From Bacteroidales bacterium (GTDB lineage Bacteria > Bacteroidota > Bacteroidia > Bacteroidales > P3), in NCBI GenBank assembly GCA_045222795.1, contig JBGUZF010000017.1, positions 4,079 through 68,078 on the forward strand: a stretch of DNA of 64,000 nucleotides. Reading direction: 5' to 3'. Below the pieces are notes generated by a model. That model was not told the DNA's origin. It saw nothing but the letters and a program-made list of their open reading frames with translations, and did no database searches. Both the position numbers and the translations under genes were made by a program. This document shows, piece after piece, positions 5,403-51,900 of the stretch (position 1 is its first letter; every line of letters begins with the position of its first letter).

Positions 5403-5411
5403 ATTTTTTTA

Positions 5412-11010: not shown

Positions 11011-11019
11011 TTCTTTATT

Positions 11020-12683: not shown

Positions 12684-12765
12684 TAGTTTTAAGTTTTAAG
12701 TTTTAAGCTTTAAGTGGGCTTACGCAGCCACTTAATACTTACAGCTTAAAGCTCACAGCTTACTT
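12684..12765. repeat. Periodic-arm hairpin (gttttaa/gctttaa units versus cttaata/cttacag/cttaaag units) in the atpH-atpA spacer
   Basis: Read directly from the sequence. The right arm overlaps the last codons and the stop of atpH (ESKL*). Confidence 0.8.
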
Positions 12766-13820: not shown

Positions 13821-13892
13821 AGTATTAAGTTTTAAGCTTTAAGTTTTAAGTGACAACCCCAGAGTGTCAATTTACTCACAGCTTAAAGTTTT
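13821..13892. repeat. Periodic-arm hairpin (tattaag/ttttaag/ctttaag/ttttaag units, loop, partial complementary arm) in the atpE-atpF spacer
   Basis: Read directly from the sequence. The unit family is the same as at 5412-5493 and 12684-12765. Confidence 0.75.
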
Positions 13893-15887: not shown

Positions 15888-18545
15888 TTAGTGTTGAATG
15901 ATGAATGATGAATGACGAATGCCAGTTTTCAAGAAATAGATACCATTGGCAAAGGCACTCACGTCAATGGTGATTGTTTGATTGCCGGACTGTTTAATTG
16001 TCTGAATGAGACGTCCTGTGGCATCGAGCAGCTGCACGTCGCCCTGGATGCCACTGACGGTGACAGTGGTCGAGGCGGGATTGGGGTAGAGCTGAAGCTC
16101 GACGGCATCGGCAACGTCTACAATGCCCTGAGTACCGGAATCGGTGAGGACTACAGCTTTGATAAGCCATGAATAGGTCAGTGTCGAGGCAAGGTCCGGC
16201 AGGTGACTCCAAGTGGTGCCGTTGGTGGAAGCCCAGTCGCTGTTGGGATCGCCGGTATAGTTGCATACCGCAGCGGGATGCTGCATGCCAGAGGTCTCGA
16301 AGGTGACCCATAGATTCTGACCTTCGGGAATGGCTAGACTGGCGTTGAGCACCACTTCTTTCCAGCCTTCGTCATTGGCGTTGAAAGTGCAGGTCTGTGT
16401 GTGTGCCAGTGTTCCGGGATTGCTTCCCGTGCCGCCAGTGTAGACGTTAAGGGTATAGCTACCTGCTTCCTTCACATAGAGCATAACGCTCTTGAGGTAG
16501 CTGAAACCTGCAAGCTGAGTGGGTGTGAGCGCTATACCCCAATACATGGGACCACCGCTGGTGCCTACAGAACTGTAGTAAGTACTATTGCCACAGTAGC
16601 TGACGGTGTCGGTATGCGCAGGGTCGTCGCTGGTGACCACGGCTATGGTCTGACTGGCGGTATGCGAACCACTGCTATTGGTAGCCGTTGCCGTTACGGT
16701 GTAGGTGCCGGGATTGGCATAGGAGAAAGTCACGCTGGCGCCGCTGGCACTGCTCGGTGTGGCGCCAGGCATGCTCCAGGTCACCGTAGCCCCGGCGGAA
16801 GCGTTGGCGGTAAAGGTGACGGTAGTGCCCACAGTCGCACGCGAAGGGCCACTGATGGATACCGAAGGAGGTGCGACTGGGGGGATGGCCGATGTAACAG
16901 CTTTAAGCAGCCATGAATAGACAAGCGTCGACGAGAGTTCCTGCAAGTGGCTCCACGAGGTGCCGTTGGTGGAAGCCCAGTCGCTGTTCGGCTCATAGGT
17001 ATAGCGGCAGGCGGCGGAAGGATGGTTCAATCCGTTGGCATAGAATACAACCCAGAGATTCTTTGTGGTGTCGATTGGGCATTCGGCATTGAGGAGCACT
17101 TCTTTCCACGAATTGGTATCGGCAGCGACGAATGTTTTTGTCTGATTGTGTATCAACGTCGCAGGAGCCGTGGTACCGCCCGAATAGACCTTGAGCGTGT
17201 GGGCACCGGGCTCACGGACATAGAGCTGAACGCTCTTGAGGTAATTGCGTCCGGAGAGTTGGTCGGCGGGAATCATAATACCCCAGTACATGGGACCTCC
17301 GCTGGTACCCACAGAGGTATAGTAGGAGCTGTTGCCACAGTAACTGATGGTGTCTGACGGCGTTGTCGGGGGAACGTAACCTTGAGGTTGGACGCCGATA
17401 AGAATCTGCTGGTTTTGGTTGAAAGTATAGGAGGAGGTGGTGCCTGTGCCGCCACCACCAAGGGCGAGGTTATCAAGGGTATAGTAGCCGTTATAGTAAC
17501 CACTCCAACCCCAGTTGAAGTGGAACCGTGTCTCGGCGGTATTGCATCCGTCGCATACGAAGCAATGGCCACCCCCGGCGTCAAATCCGGCATAGAGCAC
17601 AGGCCGCAATGCATTGAGTTCGGCCACAATGTAGTTTTTCCAGTTGCTGTCGCCAGTGCTGTTGCGATACTTGGCCTGGATGTTATTGTCGTAACCGAAG
17701 AACATGGGAAGGGCATCCTGTGCCGAGGGATAAGAAGAATAGCTATACCCGAAGTTGGTCAGCTGTGCGCCACTGGCGTCTGTGCCATAATCCATCTCGA
17801 TTGCGACACCCACATGGTACATTAGCGTGGCGACAGCATTGTCCTGAGCGACACTGCTTGTGCTGCCGAGTGCCGTCGGCATCATCGACCAATTGTAGGT
17901 CGTGGCGCCGAAGTTGGCAGAGAGAGTGCCATAAGGCGAGGTATACGAATGGCTGCCGGTACCCTGTGCGGGGTGGTTCCAATATTTCATAACCTGTGCA
18001 ACAGCCGTGGCCACACATCCTGCCACTGTACGCGCATTCGCCGTGCTGTCGTATGGGCAGAACTTATTATAGTAGGGGCTCTGGTCCCATGTGGTCGAAA
18101 GCAAGGCAGGCACCATGGCAAGAGGCATGGGGTCGCCGGCGATTGCCTTGCTGTATTCCTGCCACTGGGTGGAAACCTCGTCTGAGGCAACAGCGTTGAC
18201 ACTACGCAGGTAATCAATCTGTTCCTGATAGGTAGAGAGCCAATAGCGCACCTCGGGATTGAGCTCAGTAGATGCGGGACTGTCGAACGAGTAGGCAAGG
18301 ATGGGCTGCACACAGTCGTCGGCAGCAACAATGACAAAGCCCGTTGTCGGTGCGGTAAAGACATACATCCCGTCGAAAGGGATGTCGATCTGGCGCATAG
18401 GAGACGTGATAGCCGGCACGTCACCATCGCGGTGGGCGTTCCAGAAATTGGTGGCCACATTGCCTGCCGTCTTGCTATTTATGGGAGCAGCCGTGACGTA
18501 AATGCATACAAGGCTGAACAGCAAAGCAAATAATGTCTTCTTCAT
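15888..18545 (-). CDS. Peptidase C10 family cysteine protease with a duplicated beta-sandwich domain, a PKD-like domain and a T9SS C-terminal domain
   Basis: Motifs: FVIVAADDCVQPILAYS, AGCVATAVAQVMKYWNHP, GGHCFVCDGC ... HFNWGWSG. Two ~150-aa repeats both start DT(I/V)SYCGNS. The C-terminal domain contains LQLYPNPAS ... NGIYFLKTG. I moved the start to MKKTLFALLF (ATG at 18545); the track ORF starts 10 codons earlier at 18575. Confidence 0.9.
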   Translation of the reverse strand: MKKTLFALLFSLVCIYVTAAPINSKTAGNVATNFWNAHRDGDVPAITSPMRQIDIPFDGMYVFTAPTTGFVIVAADDCVQPILAYSFDSPASTELNPEVRYWLSTYQEQIDYLRSVNAVASDEVSTQWQEYSKAIAGDPMPLAMVPALLSTTWDQSPYYNKFCPYDSTANARTVAGCVATAVAQVMKYWNHPAQGTGSHSYTSPYGTLSANFGATTYNWSMMPTALGSTSSVAQDNAVATLMYHVGVAIEMDYGTDASGAQLTNFGYSYSSYPSAQDALPMFFGYDNNIQAKYRNSTGDSNWKNYIVAELNALRPVLYAGFDAGGGHCFVCDGCNTAETRFHFNWGWSGYYNGYYTLDNLALGGGGTGTTSSYTFNQNQQILIGVQPQGYVPPTTPSDTISYCGNSSYYTSVGTSGGPMYWGIMIPADQLSGRNYLKSVQLYVREPGAHTLKVYSGGTTAPATLIHNQTKTFVAADTNSWKEVLLNAECPIDTTKNLWVVFYANGLNHPSAACRYTYEPNSDWASTNGTSWSHLQELSSTLVYSWLLKAVTSAIPPVAPPSVSISGPSRATVGTTVTFTANASAGATVTWSMPGATPSSASGASVTFSYANPGTYTVTATATNSSGSHTASQTIAVVTSDDPAHTDTVSYCGNSTYYSSVGTSGGPMYWGIALTPTQLAGFSYLKSVMLYVKEAGSYTLNVYTGGTGSNPGTLAHTQTCTFNANDEGWKEVVLNASLAIPEGQNLWVTFETSGMQHPAAVCNYTGDPNSDWASTNGTTWSHLPDLASTLTYSWLIKAVVLTDSGTQGIVDVADAVELQLYPNPASTTVTVSGIQGDVQLLDATGRLIQTIKQSGNQTITIDVSAFANGIYFLKTGIRHSSFIIQH
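15893..15920. repeat. Heptamer array (tgttgaa/tgatgaa/tgatgaa/tgacgaa) encoding the extreme C-terminus of the C10 protein
   Basis: The sense strand encodes IRHSSFIIQH followed by the stop. The ttcatca unit family is the same as in aroE at 33621-33650. Confidence 0.75.
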
Positions 18546-18578: not shown

Positions 18579-21527
18579 TTAACGCTTGATGAACGAAGAA
18601 TGGATGTTACCCACTTTGATAAAGTATACACCGTTGGGAAGAGTGCTGACATCGATTGTGATTGTTTGTGGTGCGCCGTCGGCTTGGCCGACAATGTTTG
18701 ATTGTTTGATTGTTTGAATTAGACGGCCAGTGACGTCGAGCAGCTGAATGTCGCCATGGGCACCAGTGACGATGACATGGGTCAAAGCCGGGTTAGGATA
18801 GAGATTGATGCCGATTATTTCCACATCGTCAACGCCTTCGTGCTGGTCAGCCTCGAAGAAGGCGGTATAGGTGGTGTCGGCAGTGACTGTGACGTTGCGC
18901 ATTCGCGATGTATTGCCGTCGTGCCATCTCACGAAGTGGTAGCCGTCGTTAGGCGTGGCCGTAAGCGTGGCTGTGTATCCAACAGTGTAGGTTCCACTAC
19001 CGCCGACAGTACCCCATTCAGGGTTATTGCTGACAACGGTGACGATATATGTAGCCGGGGGCATGACCTCGAAGAAAGCAATGTAGTTGGCATCGCCTGT
19101 CACTGTGAAGGAGCGCGGATTCTCAGTGTTGTAGTCCTGCCAACGAACAAAACGGTAACCGTCAACGGGAATGGCCGTGAGGGTTGCTGTGGCACCAACA
19201 GGATACAATCCTCCACCCTCAACGGTGCCCCATCCGCTGTTGTTGCATCCAGCATGTATGGTGCAGGGAGGAATAGCCTCGAAGTAGGCCGTGTAGGTGG
19301 CATCGCCATTGACAGTGACGCTACGAGGATTATCAGTAAAACCGTCGTTCCAGCGCAGGAACCGATAGCCCGCAGAAGGAGTGGCGACAATAGTGGCCGT
19401 GCTGCCCTGCGAGTAAAGCCCCCCGCCGCTGACGGTACCCCAGTCGGGATTGTTGCTTACCACATTGAGCATGTAGCGATTCGAATCAAATATTGCAGTA
19501 AAGCTAGTGTCGCACGCTAGTACAAAAGAGCGCGGATTGGTCGTCACACCATCATTCCACTGTATGAAACGGTGGCTTGGTCTCGCCGCAGCATGTACTG
19601 TCACCGTGCTACCCTCGTGGTAGGTGCCACTGCCGAACACCAGTCCCATCGTGGTATCGTTGCTATTGACAGTCACCGTACGCAGTGGCGGGACAAAGAG
19701 GGCGCGAATCATGAATGTGTAACGGTAGGTGTTGTAGGAAGTCATGTTGTTGCCCCAACACATGCCGTCATTGTTGCCACTGTAGTATGTCACCGCAGCA
19801 GGATAGGATGCATTGGAGCAGGTGAATGAAATCCATATTGGCTGCGTTGCATCGACAGCAACAGGTGTGGTGAGCGGGATGGTGTTCCATGCTCCAGTGT
19901 TATTGGAGGTGAACGTGTGAGTTGAGGTGTAAAGCAACGTTGTGGGCGACGAAGCGCCAGTGTGTATATTGAGGGTGTAGGTTCCAGCCTTGCTGACATA
20001 GAGCTGTACGGCTGAAAGGGAATGCCCGGCGGTGAGCGTGGAGGCAGGCAACTTAATACCCCAACGGTAGTTATTGCCACTCACACTGTAACTCGTCTGA
20101 CGCCGGCCATTGCTGCCACAATAGCTAAGGGTGTCGCCACTAAGGGCGACGAAATGGGCAGTGACATTCATGTTGCCGGAATTGACAACGAGCTTACGCG
20201 GGTTGTACTTGTTACCGTCGCTCCAATGGTCGAAACGATAACCTGCAGCAGCCGTGGCAAGTAGTGTCACAGTGTCGAAGGCACCGTATGTGCCGCCACC
20301 GCTGACGCTGCAGCCGCTAGTGCCGCCGACAGTGTTAACGGTGACTGTCCCGCCCGTACCCCAGCCAGTAGTTACCGGCTGGATGCCGATAACGGCGGAA
20401 TTGCTGAGATTGAAGGTATACGTCGAATTGCCGCCTATGCCGCCACTTCCTGGGTTCAGCGTGCCTATGGCATAGTAGCCATCGTAACTGCCGCCCCACC
20501 CCCAATTGACATGAAAGAGACCATTGTTGTTATAGCCGTCGAACACAAAGGCATGGCCTGCCGATGTATCGTAGCCTGTGTATAGAAGCGGGCGACCGTT
20601 ATCAAGCTCGTTGCGAAGGAGAGCCTTCCAGTCGGCATCGGTGAAGTCAAGCAGATAGACGCCATGGATATTATGGCTGTAGCGGAAGTAGGTCTTCAAT
20701 GCGTTTTCAGCACTGGCAGTGGTCACGTTACCACCCGAGTTGGTGGCAGCGCCACTTCCGGAAGCGGAGTAGTTCATGTGTGCCGCCACACCGATATGAT
20801 ACATCAGGGTGGCCACAGCATTTATCTGTGTCGTACTGCTCGAAGAACTAAGGCTGTTCGGCATATTGGACCACTGATAGGTTGTGGCGCCGAAGTTGGC
20901 GCTCAATGTGCCATAATTCGTAGTGTTGTAACTGTGACTACCATACCCTGTAGTAGGATGATTCCAGAACTTCATTATCTGTGCCGTGGCGGTGGCGGTG
21001 CAGCCCGACACCGAACGGCCGCCACCAGTGCTGTCGTAAGGACAGAGGTTATTGTAGCGGGGCGATTGGTTCCATGTAGTGCTGAGCATCGGGCTTACGG
21101 CGGTAAGAGGTGCCGGAGGCACAACACCCTTGACCAGCATATTCCACTGCTCTTCAGCCTCGCCCTTTCCGTTGTCCACTTCATGCAAGCGGCAGAAAGC
21201 TATCTGCTGCGCATAAAGGTCCAGCCACTCGGCCACATGCACGGGCATGTCGTTCAATGGGAATTCGCCGGTGACAGAATAGCCCAATATGGGCAGCACA
21301 CAATCGTCGGCAGAAACGAGGATGAACCCTCCATCTTCCGAGGCAAAGATATAGAACTCGGTATAGGGACTTTGTTTTGTGATGTCTACCAACGATGCGG
21401 TGTCTCTCATTCCTGCCGCACTCATGAACGTGGTGGCGGCACGCCGTGCCGTTCCCGCATCGACCGGACGGGCCGTTGCTGTGACACACAGCAGTGTCAA
21501 GACCAGTGCAAACAGTGTTTTCTTCAT
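18579..21527 (-). CDS. Peptidase C10 family cysteine protease with five InlB-B-like (Listeria-Bacteroides type) repeats and a T9SS C-terminal domain
   Basis: 982 aa. Motifs: FILVSADDCVLPILGYS, SGCTATATAQIMKFWNHP, AGHAFVFDGY ... HVNWGWGG. The repeats are GYRFDHWSDG, SHRFIQWNDG, GYRFLRWNDG, GYRFVRWQDY and GYHFVRWHDG. The C-terminal domain contains INLYPNPAL ... NGVYFIKVG. Confidence 0.9.
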   Translation of the reverse strand: MKKTLFALVLTLLCVTATARPVDAGTARRAATTFMSAAGMRDTASLVDITKQSPYTEFYIFASEDGGFILVSADDCVLPILGYSVTGEFPLNDMPVHVAEWLDLYAQQIAFCRLHEVDNGKGEAEEQWNMLVKGVVPPAPLTAVSPMLSTTWNQSPRYNNLCPYDSTGGGRSVSGCTATATAQIMKFWNHPTTGYGSHSYNTTNYGTLSANFGATTYQWSNMPNSLSSSSSTTQINAVATLMYHIGVAAHMNYSASGSGAATNSGGNVTTASAENALKTYFRYSHNIHGVYLLDFTDADWKALLRNELDNGRPLLYTGYDTSAGHAFVFDGYNNNGLFHVNWGWGGSYDGYYAIGTLNPGSGGIGGNSTYTFNLSNSAVIGIQPVTTGWGTGGTVTVNTVGGTSGCSVSGGGTYGAFDTVTLLATAAAGYRFDHWSDGNKYNPRKLVVNSGNMNVTAHFVALSGDTLSYCGSNGRRQTSYSVSGNNYRWGIKLPASTLTAGHSLSAVQLYVSKAGTYTLNIHTGASSPTTLLYTSTHTFTSNNTGAWNTIPLTTPVAVDATQPIWISFTCSNASYPAAVTYYSGNNDGMCWGNNMTSYNTYRYTFMIRALFVPPLRTVTVNSNDTTMGLVFGSGTYHEGSTVTVHAAARPSHRFIQWNDGVTTNPRSFVLACDTSFTAIFDSNRYMLNVVSNNPDWGTVSGGGLYSQGSTATIVATPSAGYRFLRWNDGFTDNPRSVTVNGDATYTAYFEAIPPCTIHAGCNNSGWGTVEGGGLYPVGATATLTAIPVDGYRFVRWQDYNTENPRSFTVTGDANYIAFFEVMPPATYIVTVVSNNPEWGTVGGSGTYTVGYTATLTATPNDGYHFVRWHDGNTSRMRNVTVTADTTYTAFFEADQHEGVDDVEIIGINLYPNPALTHVIVTGAHGDIQLLDVTGRLIQTIKQSNIVGQADGAPQTITIDVSTLPNGVYFIKVGNIHSSFIKR

Positions 21528-24369: not shown

Positions 24370-24464
24370 CTGTTCTTCAGTTGTTCTTCAGTTGTTCTTC
24401 AGTCGTTCTTCAGTGGATGACCGAAGAAATACCGAAGAAATACCGAAGAAATACCAAAGAAATG
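24370..24464. repeat. Two adjacent blocks of 4 x 11-nt tandem units (ttgttcttcag x4, then ccgaagaaata x4) in imperfect inverted orientation
   Basis: Read directly from the sequence. The reverse complement of the unit in block 1 matches the unit in block 2 at 8 of 11 positions. Confidence 0.85.
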
Positions 24465-26026: not shown

Positions 26027-26752
26027 ATGCAACTGTTTTATTGTAAAGATATAACCCCCAACAGCTACTGCACCCTCGATGCCGAGGAGAGCCGCCACGC
26101 TGTGCGTGTTCTGCGCCTGCGCGAAGGCGACGACATCAACGTCACCGACGGCCGCGGCAACCTCTACCACTGCAAGATAGTGGACGCCAACGACCGCGCC
26201 GCCCAGCTGGTGAGTTCATCGCCTTTCACCTCTCACCTTTCACCTTTCACCTTTCACCTCGCCGTCGCTCCCACAAAGAACCCCGCACGCATGGAGTGGC
26301 TGGTTGAGAAGGCCGTGGAGATGGGCGTGGGCGAGATAACGCTGCTGCAGTGCGACCACTCCGAGCGTTCGTTCCTCAAGACCGACCGCCTCGAGAAGCT
26401 GGCCGTCAGCGCCATGAAGCAGAGCCTCCACCTCACCCTCCCCCGCATCAACCCCGCCGTAAAACTCTCCGACTGGCTCAATCAAGCAATCAAGCAATCA
26501 AGCAATCAAGCACTAAAATTCATCGCCCACTGCGACCCCGACAAGCCCCGCACCTCGCTCCGCGAGGCACTGCTGCCGGGTCGCGACACCGTGGTGCTCA
26601 TAGGCCCCGAGGGCGACTTCTCGGCTGAGGAGATAGCCCTCGCCCTCGACTGCGGCTTCCAGCCTGTGAGCTTCGGCTCTGCCCGCCTCCGTACCGAGAC
26701 CGCAGCCCTCTACGCCGTCGCCGCCTTCAACTTCGTAAACGACAACAAATAA
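26027..26752 (+). CDS. rsmE: 16S rRNA (uracil1498-N3)-methyltransferase
   Basis: 241 aa. N-terminus MQLFYCKDI...EESRHAVRVLRLREGD, PTKNPARMEWLVEKAVEMGV, and a C-terminal LIGPEGDFSAEE motif. Confidence 0.88.
   Translation: MQLFYCKDITPNSYCTLDAEESRHAVRVLRLREGDDINVTDGRGNLYHCKIVDANDRAAQLVSSSPFTSHLSPFTFHLAVAPTKNPARMEWLVEKAVEMGVGEITLLQCDHSERSFLKTDRLEKLAVSAMKQSLHLTLPRINPAVKLSDWLNQAIKQSSNQALKFIAHCDPDKPRTSLREALLPGRDTVVLIGPEGDFSAEEIALALDCGFQPVSFGSARLRTETAALYAVAAFNFVNDNK
26222..26260. repeat. Heptamer array (ctttcac/ctctcac/ctttcac x3) in frame in rsmE
   Basis: Encodes SPFTSHLSPFTFH between the N-terminal domain and the conserved LAVAPTK segment. Confidence 0.8.
26479..26512. repeat. Octamer array (aatcaagc x4) in frame in rsmE
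   Basis: Encodes NQAIKQSSNQA. Confidence 0.8.
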
Positions 26753-33122: not shown

Positions 33123-33908
33123 ATGAAGCACTACGCACTAATAGGCAAGCCTTTGGGTCATTCATGGTCGCAGCGCCTCTTCGAGGAGACTGTGCCTGCC
33201 GACGTTGCCGACTACCGCCTCTGCGAGCTGCCGTCGCTCGACGGCCTACAGCGGTGGGTCGTTGACAACGACATCAGCGGCTTCAATGTCACCGCACCCT
33301 ACAAGGAGGCCATCCTCCCCTACCTCGACGCGATGAGTCCCGAAGCCAAGGAAATCGGTGCCGTCAATTGTGTCAAGGTTGTGGACGGCAAACTTATAGG
33401 ATACAACACCGACGCTCCCGCCTTCCGCCACACCCTCGAGGAAACAATTTCAACTTTCAACTTTCAACTTTCAACTTTCAACTTAGCACTTATCCTCGGC
33501 ACCGGCGGCGCCGCCCGCGCCGTAGCCTACGCCCTCGGCCAGATGGGCATCGACTACACCTTCGTCAGCCGCACTCCCGAACTGCACCCCAACTCCATCG
33601 GCTATAAAGACCTTCCCTCGTTCATCATTCATCATTCATCATTCATCATTCTAATCAACGCCACCCCCATAGGCACCTGGCCCAACATCGACGCTTCCCC
33701 CTTGCCTCCCAATTTTCAATTTTCAATTTTCAATTTTCAATTAGTTTACGATCTGATTTACAACCCATCCCCCACTCTGCTCATGCGACAGGCCGCCGAG
33801 AGGGGGGCAAAAGTGGTCGACGGGCTCGCCATGCTGCGTCTGCAAGCCAAGCTCAGCCGTGACATTTTCTTTACCGACAGCACGGAATATCAGCCTATTG
33901 CAAAATAA
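33123..33908 (+). CDS. aroE: Shikimate dehydrogenase
   Basis: 261 aa. Contains GKPLGHSWSQ, FNVTAPYKE, GAVNCV, GYNTDA, ILGTGGAARAV, INATPIGT and VYDLIYNP motifs. Confidence 0.9.
   Translation: MKHYALIGKPLGHSWSQRLFEETVPADVADYRLCELPSLDGLQRWVVDNDISGFNVTAPYKEAILPYLDAMSPEAKEIGAVNCVKVVDGKLIGYNTDAPAFRHTLEETISTFNFQLSTFNLALILGTGGAARAVAYALGQMGIDYTFVSRTPELHPNSIGYKDLPSFIIHHSSFIILINATPIGTWPNIDASPLPPNFQFSIFNFQLVYDLIYNPSPTLLMRQAAERGAKVVDGLAMLRLQAKLSRDIFFTDSTEYQPIAK
33448..33482. repeat. Heptamer array (tttcaac x5) in frame in aroE
   Basis: Encodes STFNFQLSTFN immediately before the NADP-binding loop ILGTGGAARAV. Confidence 0.85.
33621..33650. repeat. Heptamer array (ttcatca x4) in frame in aroE
   Basis: Encodes SFIIHHSSFII immediately before INATPIGT. 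Confidence 0.85.
33711..33742. repeat. Heptamer array (ttttcaa x4) in frame in aroE
   Basis: Encodes NFQFSIFNFQ immediately before VYDLIYNP. Confidence 0.85.
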
Positions 33909-33979: not shown

Positions 33980-34030
33980 GAATTTTGACTGCTGAATTTC
34001 AATTTTCAACTTTCAATTTTCAATTTTAAT
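33980..34030. repeat. Heptamer array (gaatttt/gactgct/gaatttc/aattttc/aactttc/aattttc/aatttta) in the tRNA-Leu leader
   Basis: Read directly from the sequence. It ends at the first base of the tRNA. Confidence 0.75.
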
Positions 34031-37400: not shown

Positions 37401-38968
37401 GTCATCTCGTTATACGACACCAGGCCATAGCGCGCCAGATTGTGTATCATCAACTGCGTCTGGCTTATGTCAAGCCCTATGTCGTTGGAGAAGGCTTTGA
37501 GCGAGAAGTTCCACGACGTGGCTTCGGCGAACTCGTAAACGCGGCGCACGGGGCTCACATCCTCTATGCCCTGTATGTCACGGGCCTTGCGGTAGGTGTA
37601 GCAGTTGCTACTCTCGAAGGTGGCCTGGCTAGCCGAACCCGAAGTGGTGAGGTTCGAGAACTCCAGCTCGCTGCCAGTGGTAATCCATGTTATGTCGTCG
37701 CTGTAGATATCCAAACCGTGGTACGAGTCGATATAGGGGCAGTAGTAGTTGCGCTGCTGGTCGTTGCTGAGCACCACCCTGTGCTCGGCGGCGTTGTAGC
37801 GCACCGTGACGCCGGTGTTGCTTATCGAGTCCTCCTCGCCGATATAGAAAGCCACGGTGGCATTCTCGCTCACCACACGGTCCTGCGTGAAGGTCATCTT
37901 CAGCGAGGTGACAGCCATGCGGGGCTTGCCGTCGGTGTTGAACACCAGGCTCGCGGGGTGCTTGCTCGACGCCGTGAGGAACTTGGCGCCGTTCATCATG
38001 AAGCTGCCGCGGTAGTCAACGTCGGGCAGTATATTCTTGATTACAAAGTCGCGCTTGTAGCTGCGGAAGCGCGGGTAGCTGTACTTCTCGGGCTCCATGG
38101 CATTGCTCAGCACATCCTCCACCTTGCCGATGACGGGGTCGCTGAAATAGTGCGTGTTCACCAACCTCACACTGTCGGCGCTGAACTTGGGAAACTTGGT
38201 CTCAGCCTTGTACTTGCCCAGGTCGGCATAGCACACCTCTGCATTCAGGCCCGTGCGGCCCCAGTCGATGCGGCCACCCTCGCCCTGCCACAGGTTCTCC
38301 TTGTAGTCGTACACACCCGTGGTACCGTTGATGACGTTCTGGTCCTTCGACGAGGCATAGCTCAGGTTGGACGGTGTGTCGAACCACACCAGCAGCTTAC
38401 CATCCGCGACACCAAGGCGGAACGGGGTCTTGGCGTCGAAGCGCCACTCGCACGAGTTGCTGCGGTAGAGCACCCTGTCGGAGAAGAGCGTCTCGCAGAA
38501 GTCCACATATTCGACAACGGCCTTGGGCTTGGCGGCACGTTTCTTGAGGGCTTCGAGCGAGGTGACGAAACCGTCGAGGTTGGGCGCATTGCCGTAGGCG
38601 TTGGCCACGCTTGTGCCGCCGGCGGGTGTGGTGGCTATGGCGGTGAACACACGCGTGAGGCCGCACACCTCGGGGTTACCCTTCATCTTGGCCTTCACGG
38701 CGTAGGTGTAGACACCCACCAGGCGTTCCTGCATGCTGTTGTCGAGACTCGAGTAGACCGATCGGAAGGCCTTGATGGTCTTGGTGTTCTCCTTCTGGCG
38801 GTCGCCGTCCGATGTCGACTTGTTCATCCATTCCAGCAGTTCGTCGGGCAATCCTGCGACGGTGAACTCCGTGGCCTGCTTGGGCTTCTGGGCCGAGGCA
38901 GAACTGAGAATTGAGAATTGAGAATTGAGAATTAAACTCAGGCAAACAAGTGCTATGTATTTCTTCAT
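34409..38968 (-). CDS. Large (~1519 aa) secreted protein of unknown function
   Basis: Single uninterrupted ORF. I set the start at MKKYIALVCLSLILNSQFSILSSASAQ (ATG at 38968); the track ORF starts 13 codons earlier at 39007. I recognise no family signature. Confidence 0.8.
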   Translation of the reverse strand: MKKYIALVCLSLILNSQFSILSSASAQKPKQATEFTVAGLPDELLEWMNKSTSDGDRQKENTKTIKAFRSVYSSLDNSMQERLVGVYTYAVKAKMKGNPEVCGLTRVFTAIATTPAGGTSVANAYGNAPNLDGFVTSLEALKKRAAKPKAVVEYVDFCETLFSDRVLYRSNSCEWRFDAKTPFRLGVADGKLLVWFDTPSNLSYASSKDQNVINGTTGVYDYKENLWQGEGGRIDWGRTGLNAEVCYADLGKYKAETKFPKFSADSVRLVNTHYFSDPVIGKVEDVLSNAMEPEKYSYPRFRSYKRDFVIKNILPDVDYRGSFMMNGAKFLTASSKHPASLVFNTDGKPRMAVTSLKMTFTQDRVVSENATVAFYIGEEDSISNTGVTVRYNAAEHRVVLSNDQQRNYYCPYIDSYHGLDIYSDDITWITTGSELEFSNLTTSGSASQATFESSNCYTYRKARDIQGIEDVSPVRRVYEFAEATSWNFSLKAFSNDIGLDISQTQLMIHNLARYGLVSYNEMTGRVQVNQKLEDYVKAESKAKGFDYDALSLESNAKGYNARMSLDDYLLKMRGVKQFVVSDSQKVVVYPKGGNITVGKNRAIGFTGRIDVGRFIMFVSDADFNYEQFSFELPKVDSLFFYVPEFDNPDTDHMVMTPLYALVGSLRVDKPDNHCGLTKNKEYPIFESRENSYVYYDKRDICGGKYVRDRFYYTLHPFTINSLVDFVTDELQFNGVLNSGGIFPDITYPLSVQRDYYLGFKVETPAGGYPAYGGKGTYNNTITLDHFGLKGSGDLNYLTSTTRSKNYLFLLDSMSATTDTFFVREEQGFPDIRGGKLTERWYPYMDSMAVATTTKGRPFRMYHDDAQFRGRIDITPKGATAAGTATVREGTLVSPRFDLLAMEMNAEVSDFTLQSTKRNAVAFTAKHVRSHVDYDKRIAELRIADGPARTELQLVKQAAYADVFTWNMDRKVLDIANSTRPTSEGMDAMDIRMRLQKRGDLPGVRFVGTAPEAKELSYHSLLSTYDYERGELSSQGVFLINVADAAIAPAADSLHIHNGGKMGIMANAKIIFNRDSAWHYVTGADVMIASAEKYTGKGYMDYHNDTKKTQRLFLNDIAVNARGVTVASGTISDSASFTISSAFGFAGKVRAEGDHAYLWFEGGVRLLQPCIPKEQLGLLAYKGYTDPEHVHVAVPEQATDWHGRRIATSILLERHTLKMQPAFLTDAKVEGNELLSAHGVLTYLGDRKQYMIASEAKVSDPDIIVEPYLAMSTTDCNVEGEGLVNLTLRKSQASFYAYGTASVGIQDDKEDHLATVFGMTFPLAKDVVEGLYNNIKEDLRLSFAMGNTNPELRHAMMYHLGADKGAGVYAMYSTTGKLSEIPAPMQSTLLFDHVRWQHNPAVGLYYDGKVTLVAVGDKPVGLEMRLKAQISKRGNTQIMTFYIEAAKDHWYFFKYDLAGQELTIYGSDGAWLDKIKAIPLDQRKIEKEGMGTFRYFVGNNSGEVPNWLQWFSSTVYQEND
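38901..38935. repeat. Heptamer array (gaactga/gaattga x3/gaattaa) inside the signal-peptide coding region of the 1519-aa gene
   Basis: The sense strand encodes LILNSQFSILSS. Confidence 0.8.
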
Positions 38969-39140: not shown

Positions 39141-39340
39141 AAAGCCCCGTAGGGGCGGCAGATATTAGCCGTGGGTGGAGCGTAGCGCAACCCACGGGGA
39201 ACAGCGTCATATAGATATTTCGAGCCCCATAGGGGCGGCACATTGGCGGTGTGTGTCGCCCCTACGGGGCTCAATATTACGGGGGTATCATGTTCCGTGG
39301 GTTAACACCCACGGCTAAATTATGTCGCCCTTACAGGGCT
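39141..39340. repeat. Cluster of REP-like palindromic units (GCCCCGTAGGGGCGGCA-type and CCGTGGGT-loop-ACCCACGG-type)
   Basis: Three composite copies. 39141-39200 and 39294-39340 are inverted copies of the same ~50-nt unit. 39221-39272 is a near-perfect 21-bp palindrome with 2 mismatches. Confidence 0.85.
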
Positions 39341-42907: not shown

Positions 42908-45900
42908 TTAGTCGGTCTCCCATTGGTGTTGCTGGCGGTTGGATTCCTGGTCGCCACCTTTGTCGGCCCGGCGGAAGGTTAAACCGGCATAAAGCTTCAG
43001 CAACTGTTCAATTGCCGTAAGCGTAGGCTTGTAACTCCACTTAAAGCTGGATTCATACTTACTATTCGCCACAGGCTGGTTGTAGCCACCAGTACTGGCA
43101 TCGTATGACATGTCGACTATCTTTCCCATCGTATTATTGAGAGCGTAGCTTCCCGCAGAGATATAATAGAAATCAATGTAGATTTCCTTATGGCAATTCC
43201 TTTTTATCTTTTCTTCATTACCGCTTACTGTTCCATTATATATGGTGTTCAACAGTCCCGGCCAACCATAAAAAGTCGCGGTAGTTTTACTGCCTGCATA
43301 ATAGCCAGAATAGCCTACAAACCATTTCTCGTCAAGTTCTCCCACACGATTGTCCAAAGTAAACAAATTACTATAGCATGTGGCCCTGTCGGCATCTATC
43401 CAATATGGCGTTGACTTGAAATGGATAATATAGTTGTTCCAGTATACATTATACATACCTCCATGTTTCATCATTTTAGATGCAGAGATGTTCAGAGTTT
43501 TATCATACACCTTTTTGTCATAACGTGTGTATCCCTTCTCTTTGCATCTGTCGCATAAAGCGTGGTAGACGCCATTCCAGTTCCACATCCACCAAGTCAT
43601 CAGCACTCCCTTTGGAATTGTGTAGGGAATTTTTTCTGTGGCAAATTGATTGGGTATATAGGCTACCTTGCCGTAATGCTCAAACTCCTTGACCTTGGCA
43701 TTATAATTCCGTTTGTGGACATATACGCCATAGTCGAAGAGCTCTTGGAAGAAGTCGTGGTAGCGTTTGATATCGTTATGCAGCGTGGAATGGGGGTCCG
43801 TGGGAACAAGGTCGCCTGAATTGTACGAATATGATTCTTCCGGTCGACTACCCGAGAAACCCTCCTTCCGGTAGTTCTCGTCAAAGAAGGTTATTGAGTC
43901 GTAACGCCAACAGTCCTTAAGCTTCCATCTGACGACATTGGGCACGCTGCAGAACGACGACCGCCCAGTGTTGTCCGCACTCACATAAAGGTTGTCGCCA
44001 TTCTTGGTTGTCATCATGCGCATATCGAGATTCATGAAGTTGTCGTCAAGGTTCTGCGCACCGGCAACACGGACGAAACCCTCTTTGTATTGAGCGGCCA
44101 TCGCCGATGCCTTGATATTGTTATTGTCCCATTTGGGATTCCATGGTTCATATTCGTACGGAGCACCCACTTTCTTCGGATGGTTACTTGGAATAGGAGT
44201 GTTCTTGACCGCGTTGTCCAAGCCGCTCATAGCCGTCGTGTATTTCTTAAACAACTGGTAGTCGTGGGGCTTGTCACTGGTACGCTCCCACGCGAACACC
44301 TGATACATGATGGGGGGCAGAACGGTTCCAGTGTGATACTGTTTTTTGTCATCAGGCTCGTATGGGGCAAAGAGATAGGCATACCTGTAGACAATCTTGT
44401 CTTTATAGTTGCCAACATCCTGTCCCTTCGACGGATTCTTGAACTCGTCGCTCTTCACCAACACCTCATATGTCGAGTATTTCTCATGCGTACGGAAATA
44501 GAGCGAATACACTACGCTGCCCGTCGACAGGTATATGGCGTATGTGTCGTTGAGCATCTTGCGGGCGAACATACGGTTGGTGTCGCCCACCGTGTCGTCG
44601 GTGGCCAGGGCGGCCATCAGCATCTGGTATTCCTGGTCGTTGTACATGTCGTCGCTATACTTGTACGTTTTCTGTCCTTGCACGGTTCGGATTCTGAGAG
44701 AAGAGTTGGACGAGTTGTTGGGTTTCACTTCATACTTGTACCTGTTCTTCACTTCTTCCAACTTTTCGGCATAGTTCTGGCGCTTGGCCACCTCTTCCTG
44801 CATCTGCATGGCGTTGGCATACCCCGCGGCAACAGCCTTCAGGTTCTCGACAGTGAGGTTCACATCGTCGGTTTTTGCCATAAGGATTCTGAGAGCCATA
44901 GGCTTGCCCTTGAATTTGCTCGGAGTCCGGGTCAGATCGCGGGGCAATATCACCTCCAGGCAGGGATGGACGCTTCCCATATACTGGTTTTCGCTCTTGT
45001 GGTAATCCCACCCGCATTCGTAGGTTGTGCCACCCTTGCCGCCCACAATGAGGAACGCCTTCATGTCGCGGCCGTCATCCTCAAGATTCTCTATAAACTC
45101 CGCGTCCTGCATCAGGTAGATGAGGACCCGCTTTTCGTTGAATGCCACAAACTCGTTGATTGGGAAATTGGGGTCGCCGTTGTATGGCCATGTAAAGATT
45201 ACATTGTCGGTCAAATCGGCAGGCTGTGCCGTGGTGGTGACATAGAAGGTGGTGTCCTGCGCCCAGTATTTGGCATACGACTTCCCACGGTCGGTGTACA
45301 GCGGGTTGCGCCAACGGCGTTGATTGGGCCACCATTTTTTGTTTTCCCCGTAGTGCATATACTGGTTGAACCCAGTTACATAACCTTGGTCACCAAGGTC
45401 AAAGCAGGTATCCTTCTTCACCTGGGCGTCTGTGAGGTCGTTCTCTTCGCCACTTCTGCGGTATTCAAAGGCTCGACCCTTCAACTTGATCTTTATCTCT
45501 GACTGGCCAGGCAGGCCGCCCGACGTCCATTCAAAGTTCTGCATGTTGGTCTCCATGGGGTTGGGCGAATACTTTAGCGGCATGTTCACCCACGTTCCGT
45601 CAGCAATATCGGTAAAGCCCTTGTTACCACTGGTCCTGTTCGTTTCGCCACCTCTGTCATCTACCATGCCAGTTTTCTTCTTTTTACCAATCAGTGTTGT
45701 CGACATCTGGCTAGTGATTTTTTTACCGATTTTATTATAGGAGGCATCACACTCGTCGGCGCAAATGATGAAGCGGAACTTGCGCGTCGTGGTGCCGTCG
45801 CCATACTTCTGATCGGCGCAGAGGTACACATCCTCGTTCCACGGCAGGTTGGAGGTGATGGTTCCCGAGGTATAGGGAGACACCCTGCAGCCGTCTTTCT

Positions 45901-48900
45901 TCGAGTCCGCCAAGGTGTTGTAGGCCGGGGTGACATTCTGGAACAGCTTGACGTTGGCCAGCGGGTCGGTGTTGCCCGGCACGCAGACATTACCCACCTT
46001 GAAGTCGACGCTGGTGTTGATCTTCACCAAGCCGCCAAGACAGGTGGCCTTGAAGGCCAGCAGACCGTAGGCCCAAGTGGGCTTGGGGCCACCAGCCTGC
46101 AGCACGGCGGCCATCGTGGACGAGGCCATGGAGAGATGGCCCTTCCAGAAACCCAGGTCGAGACCTATACCCACTTCACCGTCGAAGTAGGCGTAGGCCT
46201 GTCCCATGCCGTAGAATCCGTTCTTTCCTATTTCGGAGTAGCCACCGCAACTGGCACCATTGGTGGCCAGCAGGGCTATGTCGACACCAAGCCTGATATC
46301 GGCCTTGAGGTACAGGAACATATTTACCTCGAGATTGGCGGCAAAAGAGGCTCCGAAGGCAAAGCCACCAGCCGACGGCATTTTGAGATTGTTGCGCGAA
46401 TTGCTGAACCGCTCATACTTGCTGCCGAGGGCATTCCTTATTTCGGCGTCCAACTCAGGCAAAGTATAGCCGCCCGGGAAGTAGTTGCCACACATGATAT
46501 AGGCGGTAAATTCCGTCGATGCCTTGGCAATGCCTAAATCCAGACTGACGTTAACGCTAACACGTTCGTCCTTGGCGGGCTTGCCGACAGAGAAGTACCA
46601 TTCCGTCTTTGACCCCCTCACGTTCGGACTATTGTTCTTGCCATAGTTGTGCATGTAGAAGTCAATGGGTATGTTGATGGTAACGCCATTCTTCCCCTTG
46701 TTATCCTTTTTACTATCTTTCTTATCATCATTTTTATTCCCTGCCTTTTCGGCTTCGGTGTCAACCACTGCAATCGATTCAGAGCTGGCGCCGCCGCTCT
46801 TGCCGTCGGAGCTGGTAAGCGGGTATCTCGACGGAGAGTCGGTACAATCGCCTGCCTTTTCCTTGTCTGATTCGTTCTCCGACTGGCGGACCAGACCCGT
46901 CAGACCCACAGAGCCTTTCACGCATGCGGCGAATGAGAGTTCCCATCCACCTTCATTTTCTGTATCCTCTTCATACCCGATATAAGCACCCACAGTGATG
47001 GCCGCATTGGTACCCTCTTTCTTCACTTCATCGTAGCCGGAAAGTATCTTGGCATTGACCTGCAGGCTGATGCCGCTGAAGTGGCCGTTGCCGATACGGA
47101 AGCACAGCACGCCGCTGGCGTTCATCGTGGTGGAAGAGCCAGTCATGGCCAAACTGATACCGGCCGTGGCCACCCACGCATCGTATTCTGGATAGAAGTG
47201 TTCACCGTCGCTGGCAACCATCGTCTCGACAAAACTCTTGGCAGCAGCCACATTGCTACTGCTTATCTTGGTATTGGACCTAAGTTTCATATTATAGGCG
47301 AAACCGCCGCCGAAACCATTGATGCTGACAGCACCCAGCGGGATTCCCGCTCCTGGGATTTCTGCCGCACCTTCGACGAACCACCAGTCGTAAGTCTCGT
47401 CCGAGCCACCCTTCTTCCTGGTACCGAAGCCTGCACCCATCGAGCAGTTGATAACATTCATAATACTGACATTGAGAGATCCTATCCAGCAGTTTCCGTA
47501 CCCGACGTTTTCATCCCTGCTATGTCTCACGGCACCTCTCACATGGCCAAGGGGACCCATGTTTGCTTCGACAGCGGCCTCGTCGAACACGCCGTCGAAA
47601 TCGCTTATCGCAAAGCTCTTTATGTTGACATGGCAGCCAATGCCGAATCCCAGTGTTGCACCGATGGATTGGTCTTTGCCGATGCCGAACTTCATTTCAC
47701 CCAGGAAGGTGATTCCCACATTGTAGGTGTTGCTCTTGTCGGCCACACTCTCAAACAGAGGCTCTACCTTTTCCAAGCTGTAAGAGAATGCGCCTATCGA
47801 ACCGCTGGCGATGGCCTTGCCGCTACCCGCCTTGTCGGAACCTTCCTTCGTGTCGGGATCGGACATAGTCACCTCGCTGTCAGTATAGTCGATACCCACA
47901 TACTTTTGTGGCGATGCCTTGCCCCATGTGCCGATGCTCATCTCCAAGCCGTCGAACTCGTAGGCTGTAACCTTCTCACCGCCTATCTTCACCTCCTGCG
48001 ACTTGTAGTTGCGCAGGTACATGTTCTGGAACTTAATGTCAGGCAGGGAGACCGGCAGCTTGAATCCCTCGTCAAACTTGATATTTATTGTTCCGTTGAG
48101 GGTAAGATCCACCAAGGTGCTGGGATCCTGGGTATGCCCATAATAGGTGACATCGCCAGCAGCATCGTGGTCGGCAATCCATGTTTTGCCGCCGTAGTCG
48201 TGTTCTATCTTGAAATACGAGCTCTTGTCAAGATTTACAGCTGCCATGAAGAGGTCGAGATTCATGCCTTTCTCGGGAGGCGTGATGGAGAATACCAATT
48301 TCTCCGAACCTATGGACAGATTGTACTTCGTGTCGCCGGTGAAGAAAGGTATCTTCATTTCTCCATTGATATAACCTTCCTTGAATTCGTTCTTCTGGAA
48401 CTTGACACCTATATGGTCAAGGCTGAACTTCCAGCTGTAAGATTCACTGGAGCCGAACTTCGCCAAGTTGTTGACCGAGATATCGACCGTGAAGCCGTCC
48501 TTGTCGATAATCAGGCCGCTGGCCGAGAAGTTGATGCTCTTTCCATAGTTGGGACCCATGTTGCCACCACCGGCAGGTCCATTGCCGCCGCCGGGAGTTT
48601 TGCCCTTGTCACCACCTTGGGCACCATTGCCGCCGGCACCCTTGCCATCACCCTGGTTGTTTCCTTGACTGGGTTGTCCTGTGGAAGGCTGTCCTGTGGA
48701 AGTTGTCTTACCATCGGTCTTGCCATCAGTCTTACCGTCGGTCTTACCATCGGTCTTACCGTCAGACTTGTTCACGCCGGGGGTTCCGTCATGAGGAGTG
48801 GCCTCTTCGCCCGACAATTCACCAAAGGTGTTGGTGATATCCTCGGGGAGCACCACGGTGAACTCATCCAAATAGAAACCCTGCCATTCGCCCGAGGCCT

Positions 48901-51900
48901 TGGGGTCTTTCAGGTAGCCCTGCGGGAATTTCACCTCCTTGGGAGTCTCTTTCTTGCTGTGGTCGTACCACATGCCGCTGCCCGTGGGCACAAAGACGAA
49001 GTCGCCGCATTCGTCGGTGGTGAAGGGATCCATGCTCACCTTGGCAATCCAGTCGCTCCAGGACTTGAACTTGGTGTAGAAGAACATCCTGACGGGGTGA
49101 TCGCTCTTTGTAGCCTTGCCTTCCCTATACTCGACGGCCTGAAGCTTGCTGCCGGGCTGGTTCTTGGGACCGAGGTAAAGCTCGGCGTCGACGGCAATCT
49201 CCTTGAAACCATCCCCATTGAAGGTCAGGTGGCAGCCTGTGCTGAGGTCGCTGAGCTTGGTGGGACGCCTGAACGACATGGTGTAGCCGTCGCTGAGCTC
49301 CATGTCTATGTCTTGACCCAGGAAGAGGTTGACGTCGCCCACAACATCGCTGAAGAACTTGTCGGGCTCGATACAGATGTTGGTGGCGAGGAACGGCAGG
49401 TAGAGGTTGTCCTCGTGCGATGCGAAGATGGCCACAAGGTTCATCTGCGCCGTCACCGGCGAGAAGAAGAAGTCGTTGATAGCCATCGAGAGGTTCTCCA
49501 CCGAATCGCCGCCGAGCATCTTGTCGTTGACCTTAATGGGCGTGGTGATGACGCCCATCGAGCCGCCGCCATCAATCATTGCGTGCACAAACTGCTCGAT
49601 TGGGTTGGCATACTGGTTCAGCTTATTGTACCAATTCTTGATTTCTTGGCCCGTACTGCCAAACTCGCCGGCTTTCTGCATGAGGAGCTGCACGCCCTTG
49701 TCGCAGTACATGTCGAAGCCGGCACCCCACTTGTTGTCGCCCATGTTGAGGTTGAAGTAGTTGTTCGAATCCTTGGTAATGGAGCGCGCCGTACCAGAGA
49801 TGATTCGGTTATCCTCATTGATCTGCAGGGTGTCGAAATGCACCTTGAGTCCGACGCCGTAGCCCGCCACAGGAGTCCACTCCACATAGCCCTCGCCGCT
49901 GTAGCGGTTCTTGCTATCGGTCTTGCCGTTCTGCATGACCAGGTTGAAGCGACCCATCTTGAGCTTGGTACGGTTGTTGACCAGAGTGCTCACCTTGGGA
50001 GTGACCAGTTTCTTGCTCCACCCCGTGGTGTCCTTGGGGAAGCAGGCGTTCGTCACGTCTATGGCCGTGCTATAGTTGTTGGTGTCCTTCTTCAGGAGGA
50101 AGGAGATGGGGTGCGACCATCCGTGATTGCACATCAAGTAGCCCGAGGTGTCGGGGATAATCACCTTGACACGCGCCACATAGCGCTGATAGTCCTTGAG
50201 CGAATCGATGATATCGTGCACCAGGCGTATGTCGGCAATGGAATCCTTGTGGAACTTGGCCTGGCCTTCGATGGCGTCCTTGATGTCCATGCCCTTGCCC
50301 AGTTCGTATATGTACAGGTTATACATTGCGGTGTCCTGGTCTTTGGCGTTGAGGTTGGAGGCAGGCTTCCAGGTGAAGTAGAGATCATAGTCGTCATAGC
50401 GCCATATCTCTTCCAGGGGAGATGTCTCAAGGTAGAGATAGGTTGTGTCTTCCCAGTTGGCGGTGGAGTTACTTACGGGACTGGTAAACTGCGGAGGCAG
50501 CACACGGTCGAGTAGCGTGGAGTCGACGCCCCACTGGAACTTCATGGTCGAGAGGCAGTTGCCCGAGTCGTCATGGGTGACCTTCACGGTGTCGTATTCG
50601 GTGTCGGCCTCAATGCCGTTGACGTAGTGCTTGGTTTCGTTGATGGTGTAGTCCACGTAGCGATAGTTGTAGCTGGTGGCTACAGTGACAATATACTTCT
50701 TGCCCTGCTGCATGTACTGTTTCCAGTTGGTGTCGCCTATCGACATCGGGTCGTTGCTGTTGTCCAGATAGTCATCGCCCACAGCCATCTTCTTGAAGGT
50801 CTTGGTGGCCAAGGGGGTGCGACTTTCTAGGTCGGACAAAGCGCCGAGGTCGTCATACAGTTTGACGGTGTATTCCACCTGGGTAAGCGTATTGCCGCGC
50901 ATGGGCATCCACTTGATGTCGAAAGGTTTGATGGTGGTGCTGACAATATGGTCGTTGTAGTTGCCCTTGAACTTCACCTGTACGCTCTTGTCCTCGGCGG
51001 GCACTATCGTCGCCTCGTCGGAGAACTTGGCGCGGACGGTGTTGTAGGTCTCCTCGTCACGGTAGGGGAAGCAGAAATAGGGTTGGCGGATGCTGGCGAG
51101 AACCTCGTCGCGACCCGAGGAGGAGGTGGTGTTCTGCTGGGCGGTGTTGCCAGACTGACCGCCACTGTCATCGACATTGTACTTGGCGGGACCCCACGAG
51201 AAGGTCTGCACCTGGCTGCGGCCCTCGTTGGCTATTTCGAGGGGATTGTTGACATTCTTGTCGCGGGCGACCACCTGTACGGCATATACGGCGCCGCGCT
51301 CGAGGGGGACGTCGAGATTGCGCAGGGTGTCGATCTGCACATAGGTTCCCGTGGTGGTCTTGGAGAACACTACAGCCGAGTGCTCGATGGCATAATCGGG
51401 GGTCTGGCCAGGCAGGACCTTGACCATCTTAAGGGTGTAAGATAATTTAGCCGAGGCGGCACAGTTGGTGATGACGGGCGACCAGCGGATATCTATATTG
51501 CGGGGATAAACGGTCTTTACAAGTCCTGTCTTCTTATCAACGGATTCTGTGTATGAAGTGATGGGCGTTACAATTTCGGGGGCAGAACCGCTGTAGCACA
51601 CCTCAAATTGGACACATGCCCTCGACATAGGCTCACCGTCGTCGATTACCTGTTCCTGCCAACGGTACACCTCGATGCAGAACTGATAGGTGCCCTCGGG
51701 AATGCGTATGATATTGGAGATATTCTCAGTGACGTTTGTCGTCAGACGTCCGCTGAAATGGTCGGAGAAGTCCATGATGTTGTTCATCTGGCGGTGCTCG
51801 TAGGATCCCAGGGTCATGCGCGGACGCGTGTTGCCGTTCTCCTTGGTGAGGAGCGACATCGGAGCCCCGTTGAGGGCATAGTCCGAGATGAGGCTCATCT

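Follow-up and report, generated by a model that had tools for sequence, protein, structure and literature searches.

The window analyzed here is a stretch of 64,000 nucleotides (nt) from a Bacteroidales bacterium (GenBank assembly GCA_045222795.1, contig JBGUZF010000017.1, positions 4,079 to 68,078 of the forward strand; coordinates below are those of the window unless another locus is named). On its plus strand, at 33123 to 33908, lies aroE, which encodes shikimate dehydrogenase as an uninterrupted, intact and functional-looking open reading frame (ORF) of 786 nt and 261 amino acids (aa). Three tandem arrays of heptamers sit in frame within this gene, all on the plus strand and all 100% perfect as judged by Tandem Repeats Finder: (TTTCAAC)x5.3 in slot 1 (33448 to 33484, encoding I109 to L121), (TTCATCA)x4.4 in slot 2 (33621 to 33651, F167 to L177) and (CAATTTT)x4.7 in slot 3 (33710 to 33742, P196 to L207). 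The peptides read from them, STFNFQLSTFN (residues 110 to 120), SFIIHHSSFII (166 to 176) and NFQFSIFNFQ (197 to 206), stop one to three residues ahead of the conserved motifs ILGTGGAARAV, INATPIGT and VYDLIYNP, respectively. An initial annotation of this DNA had described in-frame heptamer arrays directly before these three motifs, and both their placement and the exact peptides are borne out by the repeat and ORF analyses.

The arrays are not a chance occurrence. Period 7 is the sole enriched period in the window, with seven perfect arrays of at least three copies against 0 to 2 for periods 4 to 12, and first principles give an expectation of only ~0.0003 perfect period-7 arrays in 64 kb of random sequence. 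Tandem Repeats Finder returns ~18 period-7 rows across the window. Even at the window's own density of ~21 arrays per 64 kb, three in a gene of 786 nt have a Poisson probability of 0.0024. The arrays have a GC content of 15 to 29%, compared with 56% for the window, and the units stand at 4.4 to 5.4 copies, which points to a preferred copy number of about four, as in the dispersed heptamer repeats discussed below.

The ORF is recognized as AroE by both Pfam, through the substrate-binding domain of shikimate dehydrogenase (PF08501, E = 2e-16), and NCBIfam (TIGR00507, E = 2e-43); the TIGR00507 score of 148 bits is under the curated 200-bit cutoff, consistent with divergence and with the presence of the arrays. 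Catalytic Lys61 (in NVTAPYK), Asp97 (in NTD), the GxGGxxR loop and the NAT motif all align with AroE proteins of known structure (PDB: 5dzs, 1nvt and 1wxd), and the aroE flanks of five syntenic orthologues give dN/dS values of 0.10 to 0.16, which points to purifying selection on the gene. The arrays are predicted to be translated within a working enzyme. An AlphaFold model computed from 118 homologues (mean pLDDT 92, pTM 0.90) matches AroE crystal structures in Foldseek with TM values of 0.75 to 0.80, and the array-encoded residues are modelled as ordered, with block pLDDT of 83 to 97. Slot 1 occupies in this model the end of helix 97-111, a loop with a turn and the first residue of strand 121-125, preceding GTGGAAR; slot 2 covers the second half of helix 161-170, a loop and the start of strand 175-179, preceding NAT; slot 3 consists of a loop with a turn and the start of strand 205-210, preceding YDLIYNP. 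In the Rossmann domain as modelled, each slot connects a helix to the next strand (the GxGG, NAT and DxxY strands in turn), and the slots would lie on the face away from the NADP and shikimate sites, a placement taken from standard Rossmann topology and not from the model coordinates. The earlier assignment of the arrays to loops between secondary structure elements is thus right for the connector regions, but in the model they also take in helix ends and the first residues of β-strands.

The same three slots are used throughout a set of 118 AroE homologues (52 to 90% identity), in which each run of at least 8 aa was compared with the three-frame translation of any perfect 7- or 8-nt array. 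At least one array-type run is present in 51 of them, down to ~55% identity. The three slots account for all 79 runs (22, 23 and 34), which represent ~30 different 7- or 8-nt units, whereas 5,900 shuffled AroE proteins used as a control gave only 12 matching 8-aa windows. The alignment of the relatives has 7-aa-periodic peptides of differing sequence at the same three positions, including ~30 copies of AACTCAG (NSELRTQ x10) in slot 1 of relative P0074. The arrays had been proposed to be specific to this lineage, which cannot be maintained when relatives at ~55% identity carry them in the same slots with many different units. A scan of a genome collection with the AroE alignment gave a closest match of 57% identity among the matches listed.

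At the DNA level, four syntenic aroE orthologues have flanks that are 85 to 100% identical and arrays that differ. In the window and these orthologues slot 1 is filled by TTTCAAC, CTCTCCA, CCTYTCA or the 8-mer ACACATTM; slot 2 by TTCATCA, a CTCTCAC-type array or the 8-mer CAATCAAG, the last in loci L083 and L084; and slot 3 by CAATTTT, CAACTAY or CACACATT. The orthologue in L082 has an extra, fourth array of AAAGGTN, purine-rich on the sense strand. Two further arrangements were seen in relatives. P0096 has AGTGGGC (VGSGQWA) in slot 2 and ACCCACT (HYPLPTT) in slot 3, the latter being the reverse complement of AGTGGGT, which is close to AGTGGGC, so that two arrays of one gene are nearly inverted copies. 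In L001, the nearest species-representative relative, (ATTGAAA)x4 (L001 9942-9971) lies 30 nt upstream of the aroE ATG in a divergent promoter region; its unit is that of slot 3 in the same gene, in the opposite orientation.

For the most part the arrays appear to replace native protein segments and barely alter protein length. The spacings between the anchors NTD..GxGG, GxGG..NAT and NAT..DxxY are 28, 49 and 28 aa in the AroE of the window, and their medians in 26 array-free Bacteroidota AroEs are 22, 45 and 26 aa. Since this net gain of +6, +4 and +2 aa (~12 aa) compares with ~34 array-encoded residues, the latter must mostly stand in place of native ones, and HMMER alignments to 5dzs, 1nvt and 1wxd indeed set the array peptides opposite native residues with small gaps. 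The initial annotation had treated the arrays as insertions and had named an alignment with orthologues as the test that could refute this. Array-free segments of equivalent length are found in part, and insertion therefore describes the small net gain but not the two thirds of the encoded residues that are replacements. The slots of rsmE, a second gene of the window with two of them, are length-neutral. Slot 1 of rsmE, in the linker between the PUA and methyltransferase domains, holds CCTTTCA x5.4 (26222 to 26259, plus strand), and slot 2 holds the 8-mer CAATCAAG x4.2 (26479 to 26512, plus strand), which encodes NQAIKQSSNQA. Array-type runs occur in 67 of 121 RsmE homologues, all 90 of them in the two slots and drawn from the same unit repertoire as in aroE. 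The slots measure 30 to 31 and 29 to 31 aa regardless of unit, and the rare array-free fillings are equally long.

This common repertoire is narrow. Only 41 unit classes of the ~6,900 possible stop-free 7/8-mer classes were seen in the five slots of aroE and rsmE, and seven of them recur in at least three of the five; unrelated loci, also in different genomes, share AATTTTC, AACTTTC, ATCATTC, ACCTTTC and AAGCAATC. At least 120 loci (L085-L204) matched (CAATCAAG)x3 in a scan of metagenomes. Among the matches listed, the perfect length of the CAATCAAG arrays peaks at 30 to 34 nt, ORFs of 250 aa or more contain 40 of the 121 arrays in frame, always with CAATCAAG as the sense strand, and those contigs that have 50 to 60% GC also hold the heptamer repertoire of the window. 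In-frame CAATCAAG arrays of at least three copies are present in at least ~30 different genes, including those for a Mur ligase, a TPP enzyme, an M17 aminopeptidase, a DPP-IV/S9 peptidase, RsgA, ValRS (between domains) and DXS (in a linker), in addition to slot 1 of aroE and slot 2 of rsmE. The CAATCAAG count is an absolute one, and the argument for dispersal draws on recurrence within the clade and on the space of 6,900 classes. Slippage acting on native sequence in place could not have put one 8-mer into tens of unrelated genes, and the shared repertoire would imply either copying or a sequence-specific generator. A unit common to two slots of one protein was found in only ~2 of 19 AroE proteins with several arrays, which does not support frequent conversion between slots within one gene.

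The initial annotation had also explained the orientation of the arrays by stop codons, and its statements on the units themselves are accurate. All three aroE units are stop-free in every frame on the sense strand and their complements contain TGA, while the unit CTTTCCA of an array within atpG (10401 to 10443, minus strand; sense GTGGAAA type) has no stop on either strand. Coding arrays are found in stop-free orientations alone, and an argument from stop codons and orientation has been published before for the TAACTGA repeats (PMC4679880). As a filter, however, it is weak, 69% of heptamer classes being stop-free in all frames. The sense strand is G-poor in 63 of 67 slot-unit combinations, against an expectation of 48%. 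Nor is the orientation strict, as had been claimed: the atpG array and the fourth array of L082 are purine-rich on the sense strand, and AGTGGGC is a further exception. For the three aroE arrays the folding energy of the sense-strand RNA is 0 kcal/mol, and no Rfam family overlaps any array. Hairpin-based models of the REP or MITE-like kind were rejected for the coding arrays on account of this lack of secondary structure in the sense strand.

Arrays and flanks have partly separate histories. Around slot 1 the window and L082 are 99.7 to 100% identical and yet carry unrelated arrays, L082 being a mosaic of alleles, and P0106 and P0150 differ solely by the swap of an array. Short-patch recombination among co-occurring lineages appears to account for part of this decoupling. 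A single change of one unit was also seen: P0030 is the aroE allele of L084 (L084 8824-8863) minus one 8-nt unit in slot 2, frameshifted from that point into an aberrant 287-aa product, which reflects either a real slip or a sequencing or assembly error.

On balance we judge it probable, with moderate confidence, that the arrays belong to a dispersed short-tandem-repeat family of an uncultured gut or rumen Bacteroidales clade, which has colonized permissive helix-to-strand connectors. The members of this family are ~30 to 37 nt long, have four to five units of 7 or 8 nt, are AT-rich and G-poor on the sense strand, and occupy fixed slots in many genes. Arrays drawn from the shared repertoire would reach permissive sites through some process of copying or dispersal, and in coding sequence those surviving would be the in-frame, stop-free outcomes of tolerable length. 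Once resident, an array may be held repeat-perfect by slipped-strand misalignment within it, slippage acting here as a homogenizer, while short-patch homologous recombination would let co-occurring lineages swap alleles and thereby separate the history of an array from that of its flanks. Some arrays would finally degenerate to ordinary sequence. As far as the AroE enzyme is concerned, its arrays are most probably passengers, neutral or slightly deleterious, and not adaptations.

Several observations weigh against this explanation. Neither a target-site duplication nor a conserved flanking motif is present at 58 borders of CAATCAAG arrays among the matches listed. Within the same matches, 15 of 26 de-duplicated CAATCAAG arrays inside ORFs begin in the register TCAAGCAA (p ~2e-9), and the 3' ends and the non-coding arrays have no significant preference of register; starts in the TCAAGCAA register often have TCA as a codon and may mark directional synthesis. 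Copy number and protein length are near-constant within ten clusters at 90% identity, where the few variants in length trace to swapped arrays or to alternative starts at the N-terminus and not to steps of one unit, so any ongoing slippage must be slow or strongly filtered. The window and L083 differ at 44% of fourfold degenerate sites and are identical over 39 of 39 positions of the slot 1 array; compared with L001 (59% aa identity), 62% of these sites differ and at least 30 of 33 positions of the slot 3 array match. Conservation of array DNA is thus far above that of nearby fourfold sites, which is not expected of neutral sequence. Lastly, the sense direction remains poor in G for units without stops on either strand (17 vs 3, p = 0.003), and arrays in 5' leaders, where stop codons impose nothing, are oriented alike. 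These two biases argue for an influence linked to transcription or RNA that goes beyond stop codons.

Such observations lend some weight to an alternative that we find possible but unlikely, namely that the arrays are elements selected at the RNA or DNA level, for example as G-less, structure-free landing pads for ribosomal protein S1, Rho or an RNase. The factor would read the repeat or bind pyrimidines and A, and coding arrays would be restricted to slots that the protein tolerates. Conservation of array DNA beyond the neighboring fourfold sites, the G-poor sense of unconstrained units and leaders, the absence of folding in the aroE arrays, a narrow array length of ~30 to 36 nt and the ~7 arrays that abut start codons or a tRNA 5' end all fit this explanation. 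However, more than 40 different units in the same slots are a poor fit to a sequence-specific binder, and a loose binder could do without perfect identity among units. Decay or absence of arrays in the slots of many relatives has no visible consequence, and the Rfam search gave no family.

We are still more hesitant about an active process, templated and aware of the transcribed strand, that would write the arrays and keep them perfect, in the manner of a reverse transcriptase or telomerase or by patching with oligonucleotides. Patches of ~30 to 36 nt would be overwritten with tandem copies from a heritable repertoire of 7/8-nt templates in a defined register, and the fixed slots would mark sites that tolerate rewriting or at which a resident array primes it.

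The model first put forward for this locus now looks rather doubtful. It took the arrays as three lineage-specific, periodic selfish insertions into loops and likened them to Rickettsia palindromic elements (RPE), which were reportedly described by Ogata in 2000, with the stop-codon filter as full explanation of their orientation. RPEs are palindromic, have a conserved sequence of ~100 to 150 bp and add a segment of peptide to their host. Like them, the arrays are repeated, apparently selfish DNA that lies in frame in functional protein genes at positions that the fold tolerates, with function kept. They are also stop-free and sit in connectors just before conserved motifs, some net gain of length is found in aroE (the slots of rsmE being length-neutral), and most units have complements with TGA. 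Unlike RPEs they are 30 to 37 nt long, non-palindromic and periodic, consist of many different units and mostly replace sequence at constant length. They are no discrete, conserved palindromic element, lacking a fold and, at the 58 borders, conserved flanks or target duplications. Slots common to relatives down to ~55% identity do not suit insertions of one lineage, and the stop filter, although necessary, leaves unexplained an orientation that is not strict and yet is biased where stops impose nothing. RPEs (mentioned in PMC1779305) remain a reasonable comparison and the closest parallel for in-frame residence, but the likeness does not extend to palindromy or to a conserved sequence.

Origin in place, with slippage amplifying the native sequence of each loop and no dispersal between loci, is strongly disfavored. 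Slippage does occur, as P0030 suggests, many of the heptamer units are one-step neighbors of each other, and heptamers are the commonest class of long simple repeats in bacteria, which Mrazek 2007, as cited in PMC4679880, ascribes to polymerase slippage. Against this stand the 7- and 8-nt units that unrelated slots and genes have in common (seven in at least three of five slots, and CAATCAAG in at least ~30 genes), the contrast of arrays with 15 to 29% GC and genes with 56%, and net length changes that are not multiples of the unit length.

Phase variation, with aroE and other genes switched on and off as one unit is gained or lost, is very improbable. As in the contingency loci of Haemophilus and Neisseria (PMC2651432, PMC3315296), the unit length is not a multiple of 3, arrays lie in or just upstream of coding sequence, some near N-termini or in leaders, and a single-unit slip produces a frameshift, of which P0030 is the one example here. 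Contingency loci, however, have high copy-number variation and belong to surface or host-interaction genes, whereas protein length here is constant within the ten clusters, the variants are swaps or alternative starts, and no copy-number polymorphism is seen in near-identical lineages. The hosts are housekeeping genes (aroE, rsmE, atpG and those for ValRS, DXS, Mur ligase and RsgA), although some secreted proteases also carry arrays, and the sites are structural connectors in mid-gene. With only four to five units, modest slippage rates are to be expected. An assembly artefact or a pseudogene, which only the oddness of the sequence would suggest, is already refuted by the same arrays and slots in many independent assemblies (ENA, NCBI, JGI and Logan), the intact ORF, the low dN/dS and the complete set of catalytic motifs.

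The closest known systems to the proposed repeat family are dispersed heptamer repeats, among them the cyanobacterial STRR repeats reportedly described by Mazel in 1990. Heptamer arrays of GGGNATC in Xanthomonas and Nostoc are dispersed, prefer four units and are mostly intergenic (PMC4692102); TAACTGA repeats, which often directly precede start codons, are found in Beggiatoaceae, cyanobacteria and a few Bacteroidetes (PMC4679880); and long simple sequence repeats (LSSR) are attributed to Mrazek 2007 in the latter source. The arrays reported here resemble them in their head-to-tail 7-nt units (here also of 8 nt), many dispersed copies per genome, a preference for about four units, a patchy phylogeny, frequent sites directly upstream of start codons and an orientation that matters to the gene. 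As in LSSR and STRR repeats, which have units of 5 to 11 nt, head-to-tail arrays are statistically over-represented and the same unit stands at many unrelated loci. Known heptamer repeats are mainly intergenic and scarcer than expected in coding sequence, whereas about half of the arrays in the window (~10 of ~21, as predicted from ORFs) would be translated, and in core enzymes. Further differences are a large shared repertoire, with over 40 AT-rich, G-poor units where the known families have one motif or a few, orthologous slots that persist across the clade while the unit changes, and length-neutral replacement. A search of the literature found no such system described for Bacteroidales. Two other parallels may be drawn. 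Low-complexity insertions in conserved proteins of Plasmodium are codon-level expansions with a 3-nt period that lengthen loops; the arrays share with them repeat-driven sequence in loops of conserved enzymes, but neither the 3-nt period nor the lengthening. The very small dispersed repeats of cyanobacteria, said to have been reported by Elhai in 2008 as unique sequences of 21 to 27 nt that can sit in genes, are likewise very short and spread through genomes, but differ from the tandem 7/8-mers read in three frames seen here.

The clade offers a tractable case for long-standing questions on the origin, spread and function of heptamer repeats, which were first seen in cyanobacteria. Its arrays lie in slowly evolving, essential genes that metagenomes sample densely, so that births, replacements and decay can be dated against the flanking codons, which also allow recombination to be told from change in place. 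They illustrate how proteins may evolve when simple-repeat DNA, read in three frames, takes the place of the native ends of helices and starts of strands in core enzymes while length stays constant. This is relevant to the tolerance of loops, to protein engineering and to annotation, as the arrays lower the scores of family models (TIGR00507 falling below its cutoff). If the conservation and the strand bias do reflect a function or a dedicated writing mechanism, they would amount to new biology.

Perfect heptamer arrays are common only in the window and a few loci such as L001 and L047 among 80 Bacteroidota loci, most of which lack any. Elsewhere in the window, atpG (10135 to 11010) has one hypervariable slot, at residues ~190 to 205 between LPV and NDYIFEPSKEE, which is the sole hypervariable loop of the γ subunit and holds the purine-rich internal array given above. 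Its flanks are 84 to 100% identical among lineages, and its fillings vary by lineage between purine-rich heptamer-type, 3-nt-periodic (SGKSGKTGK) and A/pyrimidine-rich peptides. A second array of this gene (11019 to 11050, minus strand; sense CCCACTA) is in the 5' leader, 8 nt upstream of the ATG. Downstream of aroE, a non-coding array of TTTCAAT/TTTCAAC x4.4 (33997 to 34027, plus strand), of the unit family of slot 1, adjoins the 5' end of tRNA-Leu (34030) and is also found in L081; altogether ~7 arrays in the window adjoin start codons or this tRNA. One leader array (54595 to 54627, minus strand; sense ACATCWT) has a 14-nt superperiod and abuts the ATG of a 777-aa secreted protein.

Three arrays on the minus strand are predicted to encode parts of exported proteins. 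Those at 7737 to 7769 (sense TTTCAAY) and 38900 to 38933 (sense CAATTCT) form part of the signal peptides of a C10 peptidase and of a 1532-aa protein, respectively, and that at 15895 to 15921 (sense TCATTCA, the unit of aroE slot 2) forms the C-terminal tail of a T9SS-sorted C10 peptidase while also lying within the 5' leader of a gene for a NadB/Sdh-like flavoprotein. In secreted C10 peptidases, arrays that include one at 18695 to 18717 likewise supply stretches of the T9SS C-terminal sorting domain or of the tail.

Opposed arrays are seen at 5406 to 5493, 12685 to 12762 and 13831 to 13891, where a GTTTTAAG-type array faces one of the CTTACAG/CTTAAAA type to give imperfect inverted repeats of 18 to 33 nt. 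These pairs lie between consecutive minus-strand genes near the ATP synthase genes, with the downstream array 3 to 7 nt before the next ATG, and resemble intercistronic hairpins built from arrays. At 24371 to 24463, two adjacent 44-nt arrays of 11-mers, (TGTTCTTCAGT)x4 and (ACCGAAGAAAT)x4, are complementary to each other; the long hairpin that they form (-33.7 kcal/mol, z = -4.35) precedes the true start of mnmA and is separated from tRNA-Cys (24652), which lies downstream, by ~190 nt. At 39295 to 39340 on the plus strand Rfam finds the small RNA Acido-Lenti-1 (52.5 bits, the gathering score being 37); the gene for the 1532-aa protein, on the opposite strand, starts ~290 nt away, with the match on its upstream side. 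The array of 12-nt period at 48705 to 48770, GTCTTACCATCG x4.7 with a 24-nt superperiod, lies inside an ORF of 3067 aa (42908 to 52111, minus strand) and is an ordinary codon-periodic coding repeat, unlike the 7/8-mers.

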